A program made the translations under genes and the position numbers. Below are positions 11,132-62,386 of a stretch of 64,000 nucleotides of DNA, one piece after another. The notes beneath the pieces were generated by a model. It had not been told where the DNA came from. It did no database searches and saw only the letters and a program-made list of their open reading frames with translations. Numbering within the stretch: position 1 is the first letter of the stretch; every line of letters begins with the position of its first letter. The stretch comes from Catajapyx aquilonaris. Lineage: Eukaryota. The stretch is taken from contig KZ538320.1 of assembly GCA_000934665.2 (NCBI GenBank), forward strand, positions 1 to 64,000, given 5' to 3'.

Positions 11132-11333
11132 CACTAATATAACAACTAATATTGTAACTAATATAACAACTAATATAACAACTAATATTGTAACTAATAT
11201 AACAACTAATATTGTAACTAATATAACAACTAATATTGTAACTAATATAACAACTAATGTTGTAACTAATATAACAACTAATGTTGTAACTAATATAACA
11301 ACTAATATTGTAACTAATATAACAACTAATATT
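11132..11333. repeat. Minisatellite, 12-bp units in a 24-bp higher-order pattern
   Basis: 16 full units plus a partial one, of AACTAATATAAC (A) and AACTAAT(A/G)TTGT (B), mostly alternating. Confidence 0.97.
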
Positions 11334-12395: not shown

Positions 12396-13140
12396 TGGTC
12401 CAAGAATGATCACTTTCAGAAAGGGACGTGACGTGTGATGACGTTTCATAAAGTACCAATCAGAGCAACGATCAGATGGGATAGCCTGCTTGAAGCTCAT
12501 TGGGAGGGAGGGAGAGGATCGTGCCTCTGATTGGTGCTCTATGAAACGTTATCATACGTCACCTCCCTTTCTAAAAGTGGTCGTACTATACTCCTCGCAC
12601 ATGTGGCACTTCCTGCCTCTCACCACACTCCTGTCATTATACGTCAGTTTCGTACGAGGGTTAGTGGTAAAGGCAATGGATTTCTTAGAGTGAACTGCTG
12701 GGCCCATGGCCCCGCCCCCAAACAAACTTCTCTCCTCCCTCCTCCCTCCTCCACTTCTTCTCCCCCCCACCACTTTGGCACCATGACAACATGTATCCCT
12801 CCGCCAGAGCCTTATTCCGATGGTGCTTATGCGCGCCGAAAATAAGTGAAAAGAAGAAATTCGAACGCCGTTGCCGTGGATTCGAACGATGCTTCGAAAT
12901 TACGCGGGCACGGATCCCGATGCTCTTTTGTCTCTCGCCTTGAAAGTAGTCCCCATGTGGCAAGGTTGCTGATTTTAATTTTTCGCGTAAGTAACTAATA
13001 ACGCTATTCTAAGTAATGCTTCAGTGTTCATAAATTATGTCAGAACCAAATAATTGATATGCGTCGAATTCCTTTTTAAAATACACCGTCAATTACATTT
13101 ATGTATTTTCACCTGGCAACCTTCCTGTGACGCACGGTCA

Positions 13141-13307
13141 TACAGGCGATCCCATTGGTTCGCCCGGGGGGGCGTGTCTGTTCACTCTAATACAGGCGAT
13201 CCCATTGGTTCGCCCAGGGGGGCGTGTCTGTTCACTCTAAGAAATCCGTTCCCTATGCAAGTGAACTTGGCTGAGTTGAGAACACTCACCCCGGACAAAC
13301 AAACAGA
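13141..13307 (+). repeat. 50-bp tandem duplication followed by a family C-related fragment
   Basis: TACAGGCGATCCCATTGGTTCGCCC(G/A)GGGGGGCGTGTCTGTTCACTCTAA twice (13141-13190, 13191-13240), then ...GCTGAGTTGAGAACACTCACCCCGGACAAACAAACAGA. Confidence 0.85.
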
Positions 13308-26197: not shown

Positions 26198-26610
26198 CCT
26201 CTGTTTGTTCATGGTGAGTCATCAGTACTATGTGTGCCAACTATACAGGGTGTCTCAACTTTTTTGTCCGAACAGTTATCGAAAAATTGCACGTAGCTGC
26301 TACTTTATAAGCAGTGACTTGCAAACGGTGGTTTGTCGGGGGAGTGGGGAATGGGGAAAAATAGGGTCTCACATCCCATGGCATGTGTGACCCTCTTTTT
26401 TCCAGGCTTGACCTTCAATTTTCAGCGGGCAGCACGTATATGCCACTTCAACCTACGATTCGCAGGGGAATATTCCCCGCTCCTCCGAAAAATCACCGTT
26501 AGCAAGTCACTGCATGCTTACAAAGTAGCAGCTACGTGCAATTTTCCGATAACTGTTCGGACAAAAAAGTTGAAACACCCTGTATAAGACATATAGTACT
26601 ACGTCCACAA
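26198..26610 (-). repeat. Family C cassette interrupted by MITE A copy 2
   Basis: CCTCTGTTTGTTCATGGTGAGTCATCAGTA...GTGCCAACTA[TA-MITE-TA]...AGTACTACGTCCACAA. The two flanks join into a match to 47141-47230. Confidence 0.75.
26246..26582 (-). mobile_element. Tc1/mariner-type MITE family A, copy 2 (opposite orientation)
   Basis: TA|CAGGGTGT...ACACCCTG|TA. The interior is the reverse complement of that in copies 1 and 3. Confidence 0.95.
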
Positions 26611-28107: not shown

Positions 28108-28429
28108 CACGAAGAGGCGCAAACATTCGATTTTTGCGTCTCTCTGTTTGGGGCGTTGCCAGGGCTGGCGGCCATCTTGAAGTGTGGGGAACGCCAACGA
28201 GATATAAATAGGGTACAGGCAAAAATAGGGTCCCCATCTTTGATTCGCGCGTGTTCTTGCCGTGTAGTTGCCATGGCCGCCAAAACCATCAAAGATGGCG
28301 GACCCTATTTTTGCCTGTACCCTATTTATACCTCGTTGGCGTTCCCCACACTTCAAGATGGCCACCAGCCTTGGCAACGGCCCCAAACAGAGAGACGCGA
28401 ACATCAAACCGAAGTTTGCGCCTCTTATG
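28108..28429. mobile_element. Fold-back MITE with ~135-bp arms
   Basis: AAGAGGCGCAAAC...GGCCATCTTGAAGTGTGGGGAACGCCAACGAG...CATCTTTGAT (28112-28244) pairs with 28288-28426. TA lies at 28106-07 and 28430-31. This explains the mirror-image ORFs in the track. Confidence 0.9.
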
Positions 28430-29365
28430 TAGTATATGCTCCCTGCTGACTACATCCACAATCGTTGGTGCTAATAAGTAGCTGTTGATTGGTATGTCCC
28501 AACAACAACGACGATCGTGTGAACATATAGCTATTACATTTCCTGCAAAAACAATTTTGCCAAGCTTTAACCTGAATTTGCAAAAGGTGCGAGCTCTCAC
28601 ATGTCCAGCGAAGATACGATTAATTCAGGCTCCAGAGGTTTTGAAAAGAGAAGGGTGATGAAGCTGGGGCCTCGATTGGTGGATTAATTTTGCAAAATGG
28701 TTCCTGCCATCCCCGGATTTTTGTGAAGGATTGCATACCCCCTGGCGGGTACATTTTTTTGAGGGGAAAAGGCCCGGTTCGTCCTTTTCCCTCGGGAGAG
28801 CTTCCGACTCTGTAGGTGTGGAAATGGGTTGAAAGCCTGTCCCCACAGGTTCCTTTGAATCGCATTCATTCTGGATTTTGCAATCTGTGCAAATGAAACG
28901 CTATTCCGCACCCACGTCCCACCCACCGCGTCCTTTATCTTTATGCACAGTTTTGCACCCGAATGCTGCTCGACTTTCCCTTAGCTTTTCCCCCTGACCT
29001 GATGGAGTTCCCCTGCCCTGCACACTTCAGTTCAAAACGTCCGGCGCAGGGACTTTTCAGGATAGGGATGTATTAGCACCGGACGAGCCGAGTTTTTCGC
29101 CCCAAAAAAAGAAATTACGGGGGCTTTCCAGGCTTATCTGGACACGTCCAGGGAGATAAGCGGGGTTGCCACTTTTGTCCGGACGAAATTGGACCGCTTT
29201 GTGGCCGGTTATGTCGAGCAATTTGTGTTTGTTGTGGACGTGTCTGCTGGGGGTGAGAGGATGGGCCAAAGGGACGTTTGGGACGGGACATGTCCGGTGC
29301 CAAAATTGTGGCGAATTTCAACAGTGTGCGAGAGTTGATTTTTTTCGTGGAAGTTAAGGACATGT

Positions 29366-29400
29366 TGACTAATTATAGCGTTTCCTCTTTTTAGGTAAGT
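29366..29400 (+). promoter_or_regulatory. Putative recursive splice site (ratchet point)
   Basis: Branch-like TGACTAAT (29366-73), pyrimidine tract TTTCCTCTTTTT (29381-92), AG (29393-94), immediately followed by the perfect donor GTAAGT (29395-400). Confidence 0.7.
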
Positions 29401-30757
29401 GTTCCTCCAGTTCTGCTCATTTTGATTGGGATATGTCCGCAGAATGTAAGTACAGATTTCGAATTATAAGTGACATTGCTCCGTCCGTTAGATGGCAACC
29501 GTAGCTAACGCCATCTCGTGAGTCGAACTTTCCAATTGCGACTCAATACAGTTTGAGGTCTCAGTTGCGATGTCTTCCGGACTCTTTTCTAATCTGGCGA
29601 CTGCTGAACCCTGGATAGACCGTCACCCAATGGCTGCTTAAGAATGCCAAAGGGCAAGTAGCAGGCTGGTTGTTGCGAGAAGCCTCGCCTGAACATCCAG
29701 AATGCGATAATTATGCCATTTCCAGCCCCCGACTCTGGAATACACAGTAGCGTTCCCCCCTATTGCCTCTCTCTGGAGAGGGGAGGGAAATGAACCCATG
29801 GGAAGGTTGTTGGCAGGGGGAGGTGGTAGAAGGAAGAGGGCTTTGAGCCTGTCACGTGTTGCATTAGAATTTGTCCCAATGGGACCCAATTCGAAAAGCA
29901 GGGTTCCATCCATCATGCAATGGATGTGAAATGACGAAAAGCAATACATCCCCTGGTGGGTCGCCCTGTGACACCCAGCAAGTTTTTCAGGTGCTAATTA
30001 CATTACCGAGTGTATCCGCAGCATTTTAATCGACTAGTAAAGCTCAAGACCTAAAGACAGGCGTCTGAACGCACCCTGAAACCACTCCCACCGGATTGAC
30101 GTCACTCTGCTGCACCTGGAGCCATCTACTGGCTTAACATTTCCTCTCCGCAACAATAGCCCTATTAAAACCGCGCAATCTTGTTAACTGAGGCAGGTTG
30201 GCCAACTGCAACAACCAGGCCGTTTGGCCTTTATTCCAGGCCACAAAGGGGGGAAGGTTCGCAAACTGCTTTTCTCATAGTAATGCTGGGTCTCCCTCCG
30301 TCTCCTCCATAATGGCCAACTTGAGATGAATAAGACGAGTCAGATGCCTGGAGCTGATTAATGAGATACGTCTCCATATTGGAGCACTTGAGGCGGATGG
30401 GGGAAGTTTGACCTGCCCAATTTCTGAGGCGGGCCATCCAACTTGTGGGTGTGCCGCAAAAGAGCTGTGCCCCTGGAAAAGGTAATCCATCATCCAGAAT
30501 TGACAGGGAATCCTTTTTCGAGCACTGTCAATACAATGCGGCGGCAGCTTGTTCGCCTTCCTGCCTTTACTTTTACCGGCCCCCGTTCATGGAGCCGAAT
30601 AACTGCCGATTTTATACGACCGGTTTTGCGACACTGTTCGTGATTAATGGGGGTTTTCGTCAGGTCGGTTTTCGCCCGGGTTCACACTATATACCGTCGC
30701 TGGATCATTGCAGTTGTGGGATTCACCAATCAGAACAAGGCTTCATTGCTCCGTTGG

Positions 30758-31096
30758 AATAGCGACTTCATGTGCAATAATCGAAAAATCGATCTTATGT
30801 GCAATATACATCATCGATAAATCGCGAGATTGATCCCATATGTTATGTATCGAAATATCTCCCTCGTGTGCAATCGACTTGATGTCGATATTTCGATATA
30901 TCAGGTTGAATAAATTTCTCGACATATCGCGCATGAGGTCGATATGTCGCATGCGAGGTCGATATGTCGATATATTGCACATAATGTAGATTTTTCGATT
31001 ATTGCGCATGAGGTCGATATGTCACGTGCGAGGTCGATATGTCGATATATTGCACATAATGTAGGTTTTTCGATTATTCCGCATGAAGTCGATATT
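30758..31096. mobile_element. TCGA-rich MITE with a 75-bp tandem duplication of the right arm
   Basis: Left arm CGACTTCATGTGCAATAATCGAAAAATC..TTATGTGCAATATA pairs with TATATTGCACATAA..TTTTTCGATTATT..GCATGA(G/A)GTCG. The right-arm unit recurs at 30929, 31004 and partially at 31079. Confidence 0.8.
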
Positions 31097-42800: not shown

Positions 42801-44485
42801 TCACCTTCCACCTTTCGCTCTTTTCTCATTGTCTCGTCCTTTTATTTCCTTTGGAAATTGATGGCCCCGCTGATGTTCCTTTGACGCGACATTTATTTCC
42901 AGGACTTCTTTTTCGAACCTAATTCTTCTCCCACTACGACGACCCCCCNNNNNNNNNCCCCCCCCCCATCACATCCGGGCCAATATTATCTCCTGGTCCT
43001 TGAATGCAATCGCTGTCGAGCTTCTCTTTTTTTGAGGGGGGAGGAAGAGGTAGGGGGTAAGGAAGAACCATCAAAAGGATTTGGGACGACGTATGAAGCA
43101 ATTCTTATGTACTGGAAAGCTTTCCTTCAAACTCGAATTTTAGAAGGTTATTTCCAGGAATTGTGTAGTTTAAAACGAAATTGTAGCTATAATTTTGGTG
43201 TCAAAAAAACCGGATATGAAAATCCTGTGCGGAAATTGCATTTAAAAAATATTTTGATAATGCCATAAGCGACAGTAAAAAAATGTAGCATCATTGGCTT
43301 AGCATACGTATACACCGTATTATGGAAATTGCGGGAAAATTTAATTTGCCTATGCTTTTTGTTTCGAAAATCCTTGTTGCCGAGTTAGAATCATGAAATC
43401 GAGTTATACATTTTCATTGTGATAAACATGCGGTTCTCATCGACATCCCGTATCTAATTTTGCTACTGAAAGAATTAGTATTAAAAATACATTACAGTGC
43501 TGATGGTTGATCCTGACTATTCAGGGCAACTCACCGCACAGCCATGTGTTAATCTAACTTCCAGGATACCGAGTCTCTGAGAGTTAGACCACGCAGAGCT
43601 GTTGTGCGGGTTGCCATGAACAGCAAGGAAAAACCGCTTCAGCAGAAAATGGAGGTGAAAAGATCTTTCTCGTGGGAATATTCCGCGTAGGCCAAAACAA
43701 GATGCACTGATTTCCTCCAACCGCGTGTTTTCCTCTAGACAAAAGCCCTGCGAAAAGTTGGGTCCTCTGAGGGTGGGGAGAGAGAGGATGGGGGATGGAG
43801 GAGGCAGCCTTTCCCAAGTTCCAGGGCTGGGAGAGTGGGTGGGGTTGGAGGATGACTTTGGTAAGTTTGATTGCGGGGTATGTGAGTAGCAGCAGCTGTA
43901 AAGAGCAGCAGCAGAGGTTGGCTCCAGAGAAGAGCACTAACTTGTAAGTTGGCGGCTCTCTGATCGATACCCAGGGTTGGGTACACACTCTCTCTCTTTG
44001 CCCTGGGTTAGGATGCTATGCCCCCCCGCTTTTAAACCGCCCTCTCTAGTCTTCCTAATGTCTCTGTTTATCCTGCCGCTCCTTTGGTCTGTTTTCCCTT
44101 CCCGTTGTCGTTGATGGGCACGGCTGCCTTTGCCTACCTGCTGCATTTCCACGTTAATGGTACGTAAAATGACTCTTTGGATTTTTTACGACTCCGCGGA
44201 ACTCGTTGAATGCTCGGTTTTAAAAAAGCGGGTAGGCATGTGAGGGGAACCTATAACAGAAGTTTATTAGGCGGCGTTTGTGGCCTCTACAGAAGCAACT
44301 ATATGCACTGCCGAAATCTGAGTTCATACTGTCCAAGTATGTCATTTGCATGCTGAGATAGCCAACCCAGATTGTAGATAATTGCACTAATCATCCGTTG
44401 ATCTGAAATTCGCATTGCAATACTGTATCTGTAAGTCATAATATACTCTCTAAAAGTATTGCGTACAAATTTGATACGTACAGTA

Positions 44486-50535: not shown

Positions 50536-50819
50536 ACTGGGTGGAATTTTCGTGGTACAATGTTGGACATTAATCGAGGCATACTGCTAGCGACATTTTC
50601 CATAGCGGCAGAAGAAGGAATCGAAGATATAAGGATACTTCAAGCCGGGCGAGCAAGATTCTTTCTTCTGCCGCTTCGGAAGATGTCGCTAGCAGTATGC
50701 CTAGATTAATGTCCTACACTGTACTACTAGTTACTTCTAACTTAGCAGTACCAGTGAAGTGCAATGGTACTGCTAAAGTTAGGAGTAACTAGTAATATGA
50801 CGAAAATTCCACACACAGT
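50536..50819. mobile_element. Older palindromic MITE (H) hosting a nested MITE
   Basis: After removing 50558-50723, the left arm ACTGGGTGGAATTTTCGTGGTACTACTAGTTACTTCTAACTTAGCAGTACCA pairs with TGGTACTGCTAAAGTTAGGAGTAACTAGTAATATGACGAAAATTCCACACACAGT. Confidence 0.85.
50558..50721. mobile_element. Tc1/mariner-type MITE (G), nested
   Basis: TA|CAATGTTGGACATTAATCGAGGCATACTGCTAGCGACAT...ATGTCGCTAGCAGTATGCCTAGATTAATGTCCTACACTG|TA. Confidence 0.92.
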
Positions 50820-50903
50820 CGTGCTGGTAAAAGTGGGATGATCGAGTGCGCACCATAGTTCGCGCAGCCTGCACGGTTGACATTATCAATGATTTCTGGA
50901 GGC

Positions 50904-51111
50904 GCTTAGGACAAAGTGGCCCAAGTTCATTTTTTACCATTTTCGTGATACGACACAGAAGACAGCTCCAAGTTGGTGCAAAATTGGTGTAAGTTCTGGA
51001 CATTTGGACAGTAGATGACCTAATCGTATTTATGATCCAAGGAGTTACGCCATGGAGCTGGTGAATTTTGAAGCTTTATTTTTATGGACTTGGGCCACTT
51101 TTGTTGTAAGC
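50904..51111. mobile_element. Degenerate MITE
   Basis: GCTTAGGACAAAGTGGCCCAAGTTCAT ... ATGGACTTGGGCCACTTTTGTTGTAAGC inverted ends. Confidence 0.6.
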
Positions 51112-51315: not shown

Positions 51316-52947
51316 AGACTTTTTGCGTCCTCTCCGGTCAGTAGTCTACGGGCTTCTCATAGACTCGCCAGTTTTGTAGTAATGTGAAGCCATCAGAGGT
51401 TTTACCTAATTGCGTGCATCAAAAATTGAAGCAACGTCTCTGTACTTGGCTGCTTAGTTAACATTGCGTGCATTGAAGCGAGCAATCAGCCCACACGTCA
51501 GGGACTTGACGACATTGTAGACTCGTGGCATCTCGGGGGGCTCTCCCGCTGTGACAATCGCAATTCATAAGCACAAAGTAAGGCGGTAAGCGTAATGAAT
51601 GCGATTGTTGTCACACACCCCCTTGTGTGTAGGTTCTCCTCGGGGGGTATTCTCAATCAAAGAGCTCAATTGCTCTCCCCAGCCTTTTAGACAGCAGGCA
51701 ACAAGTTCCAATGGCAACAGCTGTGGAAATGGACTTAGCAACACTCGGTGCCAGGGTCGGGGGGAGGGGGAAAAAAAGTGTAATAATTGGAGTGTTTGCC
51801 GCCTGGAACAGTTGCGCTGAAAACAAATGGTGTTGTGTCTACCCCTTGAAAATTTTGGCGGAGTAAGCTTTTATCCGGGGTTTTTCCCCCCCGGGCTGTC
51901 TTGCAGAGTTTGCGGGCCTCAGAAAGGGGGGGGGCTCAGATGCTAATCCTAAGTTGCGGATGACGTGGGCCGGATGGTTCTTCTCAGCATAAGATGAATC
52001 GCGGAGACAACGCATAAATGAAGACTGACTAATTCTGGGAGATTTCCCGGATACCAGAGGCGTGGAAAAGAGGCCCGTCCTCCCGGATTTATCACTGCTG
52101 GGGAACATCCCCAGAACTTTCCTAAACGCGTCTCGACCGCGACCTGCATAAATCCGTCAGATTCAAGCGCGTATTCCTCAGGGCAATCCGGACTTTTCCT
52201 CTGCTGATTTCCCCCGCCGGATTGGCCACATGAGTATGAAGGACGGATATCCAAATTCGCAAATTTTTTTCTTGCTTTTCACCCTCCCACATTTTAAGTC
52301 CAAAGTCTGTGAGGATGTGAAAACGACGTTAAGCTGGAGAGCTGGGATATTGCTGAAATGTGGCGGACGTGAGCAGGAAGCAAATTCGCAGATTTTTTTT
52401 TCTCTCGCCCCCCACTACCCCCCAGTTCTTTCCAAACTTCTTTTTTTTTGGCAAAATGGTTCCCTCTACCCTTCTTGTCATCTCATGAGAGACGTATCCC
52501 CTGGTGCTGATAAAAGCCGGGACTTTGCCTTTTAATGCATTCGGCCTTCTCCCAGGTTTTTACGCTTTCTGTGTAGCCAGTAAGTTTTTTTTCCCCCTGG
52601 AAAAAAAAAATGGCAGGCAGAAAATGTGGGCGAACTTAACTCCGAGCGAATACCTCGAGAGAGAACCTTTTCATTCCGGTCTCTTGGCACATGCTGTATT
52701 TTCCGGGCCGTGACGTTACCTGGGTATATCATATTCATGGAGTTATCAGCCGGGAGCGACACGACGGAGAAGGCGTGTGTATAAGGCTACATTAGGGGCA
52801 TTCACACTGCAACCGAACCCATTACGGAACCGGCCCACTTTTTGGTTGCTTAATCATTGATCATCTGATTCCATATTCGTCATTTTGCAAAAGTGCCAAC
52901 CGAAATCATATTTGTTGACCCTTTTTTTAAATATTTGTGCTAACTTA

Positions 52948-55111: not shown

Positions 55112-58100
55112 CGGTTCCAACAATTCTGCGTGTGATTCCTTGTGGAAAATATACACCGATGCTATCTAGAGCTCTTTACTTAAAGAAGTGAAGCACATAG
55201 CCGGCACTATCGATCAGGATTAAGGAGCTATAGGGAGGGAGGAGAAGGGGGTTGGGATGGTTCCTGATTATCCGGAGCAGGCCCTTGTTTGCATGAAGAG
55301 GAGTCGGCCCACCTCGGTTGGAAGTCACCGGAAGGATGCTAGGGGTCGTAAGGCCCGGATTTCGGAACAGGCTAATTAATATGGCGGTTAAGTTTGGGGG
55401 GCAAAAGAGGGGGGGGGGGNNNNNNNNNNNNNNNNNGGGGGGGGGGCGAGAAGGCAAGTGCCGTCTTATCAATTTTCCATTTTCGGGTTAGTACTGTGGC
55501 CGATAAAAATTAGGAACCATTGTTCGAGTTATATCCGGGTTATACCATCGCTAAACTCCGGATTAAGAAATAACTGTAGCTTAGCTTAATCTACAGATTA
55601 CGAACTTTTGCCTCGAGAAATTCAAATTTTTGTGAACTGGGATTAAACTGGACTTGAACCGGGTTTACATTTGAACCACTGTTCGAGAAATCGCCCCTAA
55701 AAGTGGCCAAAATCAGCGGGTCAAAGTTAACCACCGGTTACTATAGTTGGGAGTGAGGAAAACACCAAGTCGCCTAATGCCATTGTCGGAAGCCATTACT
55801 TAAAAAATCAATCTAACCAACAGTCGCTATTTATACAACTAGATCGAAGGAGTGGTGTTAACTATTTTAAAAAACGACTACAGAGAGTAGCCTGCTAATT
55901 CTGCAATCAATAGTACTAGCCATTCCTAACATTTATATTTAATAGCTGCTACTCCAGTAGCAGTTACTGTGACTGGTAGTTAATCTATGCAGTGTTCGTT
56001 TTAGTATACATTCAGGATGTTTTCCATCGGATGGAAATGTGATGGACGACACACGTCAAAGAATATGTCAACTCCATGGATGAAGATCCAGGCTGGCAGT
56101 TGTTGGAATTACATGCAGACAAGCCTCGTTCGGAAATCCGGTCGAATTAGCAGAGGAGAGAGGCCTGAATTATTAGAACTGCATTTCCAGCCACTTTTTT
56201 TTCTCTCGTTTTTACAAAAAGTATTCACTAATGAAGAGGGGGTGCTCCCTCGTGAGCCAAATAACCCGACGGGATTTTTAATTGAAAAGTGGAACATTTC
56301 ATTTCACGCATTGGAACCTCTGGCAACGCAATGCTGGTCTTTTTGCTGGACGATCAAATTTTTTAAAGAAATAGTACAAATTATTATTACAGTGGCACAG
56401 TTAATATTTAAAAATATAATATCAAATGTCAAGTTCTTCCTCATTTTTTCCCATTTGGACCCAACAGTAGCGTGTTGTGTATTTCGACCATGAAATTTTC
56501 TGCATTTAAATTAAAATTGAAGTCGAGGAACAAATGCCGTGCGTTACATTTTGAAAGAACCATCCAAGTGACCATTGTTGCTTGGTTTGTTTGCCAAAAA
56601 AGGACCATTGCTAATTTTTTTTATCGCACTGGAGCATCAGTAGTTTATTCAGCAGTCGTCCATGTTGACCTCTGCATGCGAATAAAAGGAGACGTTTGTG
56701 ATGGAAAAAGGACGCAACTTTGTGTCCGAGTTTTTTTTTATTGTTGGTTGTTGAGACTCGGCTGCATTTTCCTAATTCCTGTTTTGGAGCAAAACAAAAA
56801 CAAGGGGGTGGACCGGGGGTTTAAAAAAAAAAACCTGGCGGAGTTTCCGGCAGCAGAGCAAACGAATGCGGCGGGCCATTGTTTGCGGTGTCCGTTGGAA
56901 TGGATTGGGACGGGACGTTGTGCAGTCGGGACAGCCAACGGTCGGGATTGAAAGCTTTTGCGGCCACACCGACACAGCTTGCAGGAACGACACATGCACA
57001 AAAAAGTCACTATTTTGGAGGGGAAACAGCTTGGAAATAATGACCCAAATATCTCCATGTTTACGAAGCTCAAAGGTCTTGTAGAATCACAATTAAGTCC
57101 TTAGGTGAAAACGTCCTTTGATTTAAACACTCGGTCAAGTCATGCCCTGGATCTGTCCACATTAAAGATTTAGTTCACTAAAGATGACATGTTCAATACA
57201 ATGAAATAGCGCATGAAACAGATTGTTTTTCAATGAACTCCAGTACTGATAAGCCCGACAGACTGTGAAAAAGAAATGGCAGAAGCTCCATATTGCCTCA
57301 ATATATTTTTTTTGCCAATCTTGATATCCCTTTTCTCCCATTCTTCTGATGCTAGAAAATACCATAAAAATGAAGACAGTTCTGCAGCGACTTATCAGGC
57401 TTCTTGCAGTCTAGGCTTGTAAATAAGGCACAAAAAGCATCTCGGTTTAAACTTTATCTGGCTTCAGGGAGGAATGGACGGGGCGATTTTTGAGGGCTTC
57501 GTCCCTATATAGCATGGCTCGGATGTGGCTAAATATTTGAAGCACTTTCTGAATAGCGTGCCTCCAGGCTCAATCCGCTCCCCATCCACGAAAAAAAAAA
57601 ATTGCGAATTTTTGCGACGAATCCTTTCTGAGCAGGGAGGCTCATCTTGCCTAGAAATGGAGCCTTTTTTTTCTCTCCATGCGACTATCGATCATCTTTT
57701 CTAGCCTCATCCTTCTCTCATCATTAAAAAATTTAAGTAAAACAACGCGGTTATATATGAAGGTCCTTTTACTTCAGAGGTTTTGTTGCCGCACCCCTGC
57801 TGGATATAGGTTAAAACCGAAAAATCTGAAAAACAGAAAATTTGCACAAATTTCTTTACATGACATACGCGTTATATTACGTTTTTATTAACCTCAATGA
57901 CCGTTCCTGTACCAAACATTAATGGATTGTTGTTCCGCAATTTTTTGGCAATAGCAGTGATCCCTGTTATTTTAAACATTCTGACTCTTTTGAGTGATTA
58001 GTTAGTTGATATTTCCAACCCTCATCCCCCAAAAAGTACACGATTTGCAAACACGACCTTTCACAATTATTAATTGCTAATGTCAGGTAACATGAGCGTA

Positions 58101-62324: not shown

Positions 62325-62386
62325 ACATGGCCATGTATTACTACGCCAGCAGACTCAATGCCTCCGCGCAGGCACTCTCCAGGAAG
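62325..62386 (+). CDS. Putative 62-nt coding exon, (D)MAMYYYASRLNASAQALSRK; gene unidentified
   Basis: Acceptor CTTGTCGTCCCTGCAG|, donor AAG|GTAAGA, and an ATG in GACATGG context at 62327. The frame is open upstream to ATG 62171 and 61994. All three frames are open across the exon, so the choice of frame is inference. Confidence 0.55.

Follow-up and report, generated by a model that had tools for sequence, protein, structure and literature searches.

Site-by-site maps of recursive splicing come almost solely from Drosophila and, for a different form of the process, from vertebrates. The locus considered here raises the question of whether such a site lies at position 29395 of a 64-kb stretch of DNA (hereafter the window, by which we mean the whole stretch analysed) from what is presumed to be a non-dipteran invertebrate. 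A sequence-only reading had singled out the motif around this position, in which an acceptor runs directly into a consensus donor, as the ratchet point of a giant + strand intron removed in steps. Taking anatomy, rarity, setting, strand signals and published precedents together, we regard 29395 as a candidate ratchet point, somewhat more probably than otherwise one that functions in recursive splicing within a long intron of a + strand gene. If validated, a site with this cryptic-exon architecture would show the mechanism known from flies at work in a further lineage, and would offer a clean substrate for minigene work.

Anatomy of the motif and its downstream donors

The elements of the motif are collected in Table 1. 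On the + strand, seven bases separate the branch-point-like element from the pyrimidine tract, the tract carries T at positions -3, -4, -5 and -6 (-5 and -6 being 29390 and 29389, respectively), and the AG at 29393-94 and the GT at 29395-96 are directly juxtaposed, with zero nucleotides between them. One AG (29377-78) is found between the candidate branch A and the tract, 5-6 nt past 29372; an AG 5-6 nt from a branch point is too close to be selected as an acceptor. The branch-like sequence, the 12 pyrimidines, the AG and the GTAAGT previously reported between 29366 and 29400 were all recovered, and their coordinates proved exact.

Table 1. Positions of the candidate ratchet point, its putative RS-exon and associated splice signals in the window.
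Feature	Position	Strand	Remarks	Basis
Branch-point-like element TGACTAAT	29366-29373	+		Sequence
Candidate branch A	29372	+	-23 from the 3' splice site; CTAAT	Motif level
Polypyrimidine tract TTTCCTCTTTTT	29381-29392	+	12/12 pyrimidines	Sequence
Candidate recursive 3' splice-site AG	29393-29394	+	TAG context	Sequence
GTAAGT, putative regenerated 5' splice site (ratchet-point donor)	29395-29400	+	6/6 match to consensus	Sequence
Putative cryptic RS-exon	29395-29445	+	51 nt, 3n; 2/3 frames open	Inferred from sequence
Downstream donor AAT/GTAAGT, candidate RS-exon donor	29446-29451	+	Non-consensus T at -1	Sequence
Second downstream donor CTC/GTGAGT	29518-29523	+	Alternative end of a 123-nt exon; no frame open	Sequence
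Candidate downstream exon ccctgcag/AC ATG ... AAG/gtaaga	62325-62386	+	62 nt; 20-codon ATG frame	Sequence

We compared this arrangement with the ratchet points of Drosophila, the consensus of which is (y)nncag/gtaagt as quoted by Shepard et al. in 2009 (PMC2773006). The juxtaposed AG/GTAAGT is shared with the fly sites as described (Duff et al., 10.1101/006163; Pai 2018, PMC6110457; Burnette 2005, as cited), and so are the prominent pyrimidine tract, the TT at -5/-6, a candidate branch A within the interval from -36 to -21 and a location in long, apparently non-coding DNA. In Drosophila, 196 of 197 ratchet points have TT at -5/-6, as against 44% of all introns, and recursive branch points, 79% of which are A, lie mostly between -36 and -21 (Duff et al., 10.1101/006163). 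The smallest intron with a ratchet point in the same study measures 11.3 kb. In the window, the possible intron segments would extend at least 29 kb upstream of the site and 33 kb downstream of it, as far as the candidate exon at 62.3 kb, lengths that fall within the range of 2.6-63.6 kb given for Drosophila. There are also differences. The fly consensus has C at -3, whereas 29392 is T, and this base counts against a ratchet point; in addition, the 29395 site, unlike the fly sites, is known from its sequence alone.

Several features extend the original description, namely the TT at -5/-6, the position of the branch A at -23 and the donors at 29446 and 29518. Fly ratchet points are recognised via a cryptic RS-exon of ~50 nt that ends at a downstream donor, which the regenerated donor normally out-competes (Joseph & Lai 2021, PMC8605326). 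A second GTAAGT 51 nt downstream of the first, followed by a GTGAGT, would correspond to this arrangement of a short cryptic RS-exon in the fly. The window holds 39 GTRAGT on the + strand, and three of them are found inside 130 nt at this site; at that density, two more within 125 nt of the first have a probability of P=0.0026, a value calculated post hoc. The 51-nt candidate RS-exon begins with the consensus donor GTAAGT and would preserve the frame. In length it equals the Ubx exons m1 and m2, which are expressed RS-exons of 51 nt each (PMC8605326), and like them it has a consensus donor at its start and a second donor at its end. The idea that the window might represent the Ubx locus, which arose from this length, was rejected, given that no homeobox or other Pfam domain was detected in the window. 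The 29446 donor also agrees with the donor-competition model in having the weaker context, with T at -1. By comparison, cryptic RS-exons as a rule do not keep the frame according to the same account (PMC8605326), whereas the candidate unit has a length divisible by three and two open frames. Vertebrate RS-exons (Sibley 2015, via PMC8605326) are alike in their exon-definition mode of recursion and in the competition between regenerated and RS-exon donors, but are described there as mostly expressed exons, and the CpG observed/expected ratio of 0.79 argues that the window is not from a vertebrate.

Judged by its motifs, the 29395 site would thus qualify as an intronic ratchet point of the Drosophila type with a cryptic RS-exon. 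At this level the original interpretation is upheld, and it is reinforced by the TT at -5/-6, the branch A at -23 and the donors 51 and 123 nt downstream.

Rarity, copy number and surroundings of the site

The motif was then set against the rest of the window. The donor-containing string AGGTAAGT occurs once on the + strand and 0 times on the - strand across the whole 64 kb. Among the 413 AGGT tetranucleotides examined on both strands, 29395 is the sole + strand site with at least 5/6 donor matches and at least 13/20 upstream pyrimidines; two weaker sites on the - strand also combine such a donor and pyrimidine content. Twelve pyrimidines followed by AG (Y12-AG) occur 6 times on the + strand, where they precede 6 of the 3538 AG dinucleotides of that strand, and 10 times on the - strand.

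Chance expectations were derived from an order-4 Markov chain trained on the window, with which 6000 windows of 64 kb were simulated. The core motif Y12-AG-GTAAGT appeared at a rate of 0.0010 per window on the + strand and 0.0012 on the - strand. Adding a CTRAY 0-12 nt upstream of the tract reduced this to 1 in 6000 simulated windows on the + strand and 0 in 6000 on the - strand, and when a GTRAGT was required 24-94 nt downstream, 0 of the 6000 windows had the motif; both the branch-motif and the donor-cluster tests were chosen after the sequence had been seen. AGGTAAGT is not unusual by itself, with a Markov expectation of 0.6-0.8 per strand and simulated values of 1.0 on the + strand and 0.4 on the - strand. 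In a single window the core is therefore an event of about 1 in 500, and a rarer one with either added feature. The motif lies well beyond chance for a single window. It was picked, however, in a survey of many windows, and among thousands of eukaryotic windows a few core motifs are to be expected by chance.

The site is single-copy. A DNA contig of run X1 spans 28505-30981 at a depth of 31.5 and with 0 differences, while nearby repeats reach depths of 1e4-1e5, compared with ~30 for single-copy DNA. Run X5 matches solely high-copy repeats at ~26.2-26.8 and 28.1-28.4 kb, and not the site. Anatomy, rarity and single-copy status of the site are all direct observations.

Two near-fully palindromic elements are located in this part of the window, at 26242-26586 and 28126-28445, whose arms measure 72+42 nt and 87+29 nt and are 88-96% complementary; they look like very high-copy transposons of the MITE type. 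The 29395 site lies ~950 bp downstream of the second element and outside it. Tandem repeats were found at 30925-31095 (75 nt, 2.3 copies, 93%) and at 13140-13240 (50 nt, 2.0 copies, 98%), and the X1 depth is modestly raised at 30.8-31.4 kb. A further tandem array, at 11133-11333, consists of 8.4 copies of a 24-nt unit (two 12-nt subunits of the ACTAATAT type) with 95% matches, and inflates the + strand count of CTAAT (107 vs 66). N residues total 28, in runs at 42949-42957 and 55420-55436 and as single N at 1635 and 58146; the short runs point to minor gaps of a draft assembly.

The surroundings of the site look non-coding. Directly upstream of the AG/GT at 29394, each of the three phases runs into a stop codon, after 0, 5 and 8 codons, so that the GTAAGT at 29395 is not the donor of a coding exon. 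Neither the 19 open reading frames of at least 120 aa nor the 230 of at least 75 aa in the 64-kb window gave a Pfam match at the gathering score, and scans of the window returned 0 Rfam families and 0 tRNAs. Three sub-threshold Pfam matches (DUF1402, TTI1 and LIDHydrolase; E 0.001-0.007) are what 230 queries would be expected to give. A LIDHydrolase identity for the 98-aa frame at 50782-51075 on the - strand was considered and rejected: the match (E=0.0011) scores 19.2 bits against a cut-off of 27, the translation is unlike a hydrolase and the hit is probably spurious. The earlier description of the window as an exon-free stretch agrees with this lack of Pfam, Rfam and tRNA signal, but short or non-coding exons and intergenic DNA are also compatible with it.

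Strand signals and the intron context

Base composition was analyzed in 15 bins of 4 kb over the first 60 kb, after removal of the 28 N, and sign tests were applied. On the + strand, T exceeds A in 14/15 bins and G exceeds C in 13/15, each by a skew of about 4-5%. An excess of T over A on the coding strand is described as general in eukaryotes (PMC5786239), and the TA skew thus points to + as the sense strand. The same source reports C>G on the coding strand of invertebrates including Drosophila, and G>C on that of vertebrates. The G>C skew of the window is therefore of the vertebrate type and opposite to that of Drosophila introns, which makes composition a weak and ambiguous hint. A vertebrate origin, to which the combination of T>A and G>C might point, was rejected, as the CpG ratio argues against it. 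In a presumed invertebrate, either transcription or the direction of replication could be the cause of T>A together with G>C.

Splice-site hexamers gave a further indication of strand. GTAAGT occurs 21 times on the + strand and 6 times on the - strand, against Markov expectations of ~12 and 8-11 (binomial P 0.009-0.033), and the bias is weaker for GTRAGT (39 on + vs 18 on -, P 0.04-0.10). For 3' splice-site hexamers the picture is mixed: TTTCAG was found 14 times on the + strand where 26-28 were expected, while TTTTAG and TTGCAG are not depleted there. A location of the site inside a giant + strand intron is weakly hinted at by the T>A skew and by the + strand excess of GTAAGT.

An upstream exon is absent from the window. 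A downstream exon at 62.3 kb had been put forward as credible and as lying on the same strand, and it does indeed combine good splice signals with the + orientation (Table 1). However, a search of longer proteins with the surrounding 70-aa frame found no homologue, which by the nature of the search is weak evidence, and the exon has no Pfam match. A simple acceptor-plus-donor rule recovers 34 pseudo-exon pairs on the + strand and 20 on the - strand of the window; the candidate is one of the 34 and so is neither unique nor exceptional among such pairs.

Proposed splicing route, alternatives and precedents

The mechanism that we propose is drawn by analogy with Drosophila, and we infer + strand transcription, the intron context and every splicing step at 29395. 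U2AF and U2 would recognise the branch A at ~29372, the 12-pyrimidine tract and the AG at 29393-94, while U1 bound at the downstream donor at 29446 (or at 29518) would define a short cryptic exon, 29395-29445. Splicing of the upstream exon to 29395 would remove the first intron segment and rebuild a strong donor, exon/GTAAGT. This regenerated donor would be expected to beat the downstream AAT/GTAAGT with its poor -1 base, so that the 51-nt cryptic exon would leave with the remainder of the intron in a second step, and the mRNA would keep no trace of it.

The plausibility of a real site can be gauged from the work of Shepard et al. in 2009 (PMC2773006), who counted RP-sites per 100 kb in introns of >50 kb at an 80% score threshold. 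The rates given there for the sense strand and its complement are 2.196 and 0.101 in fly, 1.029 and 0 in mosquito, 0.484 and 0.122 in bee, 0.807 and 0.101 in beetle and 0.540 and 0.066 in sea urchin, with sense:complement enrichments of 4.0 for bee, 8.0 for beetle, >>10 for mosquito and 8.2 for sea urchin. These rates imply that most sense-strand RP matches in the long introns of invertebrates exceed background. If the lineage studied here resembles those species, finding a genuine site within 64 kb of a long intron would be far likelier than the ~0.001 expected by chance for a match of this quality. The TT, the branch distance and the downstream donor, as read from the sequence, would likewise favour function.

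Against this stands the possibility that a run of pyrimidines, an AG and a GTAAGT came together by chance in neutral DNA, intergenic or intronic and on either strand, and are never or negligibly used. We consider this unlikely, though it is the alternative that deserves the most weight. The chance expectation of the core, ~0.002 per 64-kb window on both strands, means that thousands of eukaryotic windows would yield some; for AGGTAAGT by itself the expectation is 0.6-1.0 per strand, and Y12-AG was found 16 times in the window. A comparison of the 20-base core with a metagenome collection retrieved 3 loci, on unrelated contigs, with the identical 20-mer and flanks that are dissimilar beyond it. 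These are chance matches, and they show that such strings arise independently. A coincidence of this kind would nevertheless have to include the branch motif (1/6000), the downstream donor (0/6000) and the donor cluster (P=0.0026), and it fits poorly with the sense-to-antisense RP-site ratios of 4-22 reported for invertebrate long introns (PMC2773006).

Quite improbable, in our estimate, is an ordinary exon boundary, whether of a non-coding exon that ends at 29394 and lacks annotation (in a 5'UTR, an alternative first exon or an lncRNA) or of a plain 51-nt cassette micro-exon, 29395-29445, that begins with GTAAGT by coincidence and is normally included in the transcript. TAG/GTAAGT is also a good context for a conventional donor, and the 51-nt segment, being divisible by three and open in 2/3 frames, is as expected for an expressed cassette exon. 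The stops after 0, 5 and 8 codons, however, exclude a coding exon ending at 29394, and a plain donor would make the perfect upstream acceptor coincidental, Y12 preceding only 6/3538 + strand AG. The cassette version, moreover, partly merges with the ratchet-point reading that we prefer, because any exon opening with a consensus donor counts, by definition, as a candidate RS-exon. We give very little credence to an intronic docking site for the U1 snRNP, serving for example to suppress premature polyadenylation or to promote trans-splicing, with an incidental acceptor. AGGTAAGT matches the donor consensus in full, GTAAGT is enriched on the + strand (21 vs 12 expected), and a conserved intronic U1-binding motif is reported to promote trans-splicing at Drosophila mod(mdg4) (PMC4387717). 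Docking of U1 would, however, leave the perfect acceptor, the branch motif and the spacing of the downstream donors unexplained, and nothing in the data is specific to it.

The ratchet-point reading also has a more elaborate form, in which competition of the 29395 donor with that at 29446 would lead to alternative inclusion of the frame-preserving 51-nt RS-exon, as with the Ubx micro-exons m1 and m2, in an invertebrate outside the Diptera. This version is speculative and improbable; if true, it would mean that regulated recursive splicing of the exon-definition type is not confined to flies.

Outside the Diptera, the precedents that we found in the literature at the level of sites or motifs are the enrichment study of 2009 and one locust site. 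The predictions of Shepard et al. (PMC2773006) resemble ours in being motif-only calls made with the same consensus and in concerning, as we presume here, non-dipteran invertebrates; that study presents genome-wide enrichment and no validated single sites, whereas ours concerns one site in more architectural detail. In the locust, a recursive site predicted in the 230-kb intron 2 of NPF1 was reported in 2022 with support from U2AF65 RNA immunoprecipitation (PMC8892266). The NPF1 site is likewise a single motif-predicted site, outside the Diptera, with an upstream branch point and a pyrimidine tract; in contrast to its immunoprecipitation support, the site at 29395 is a sequence-based prediction. 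The earlier remark that recursive splicing is little documented outside the Diptera was a fair one, with these two precedents found, but it needs to be qualified by the enrichment in bee, beetle and sea urchin in 2009 and by the locust site of 2022. Sites in non-dipteran invertebrates have thus been predicted for years, and 29395, a candidate at the motif level, would add a well-defined experimental target to them.

Elsewhere in the window, an acceptor and a donor come close to juxtaposition at 52565-52585 on the + strand, where ctttctgtgtag/CCA/GTAAGT is followed by T8, placing a good acceptor 3 nt from a consensus donor.
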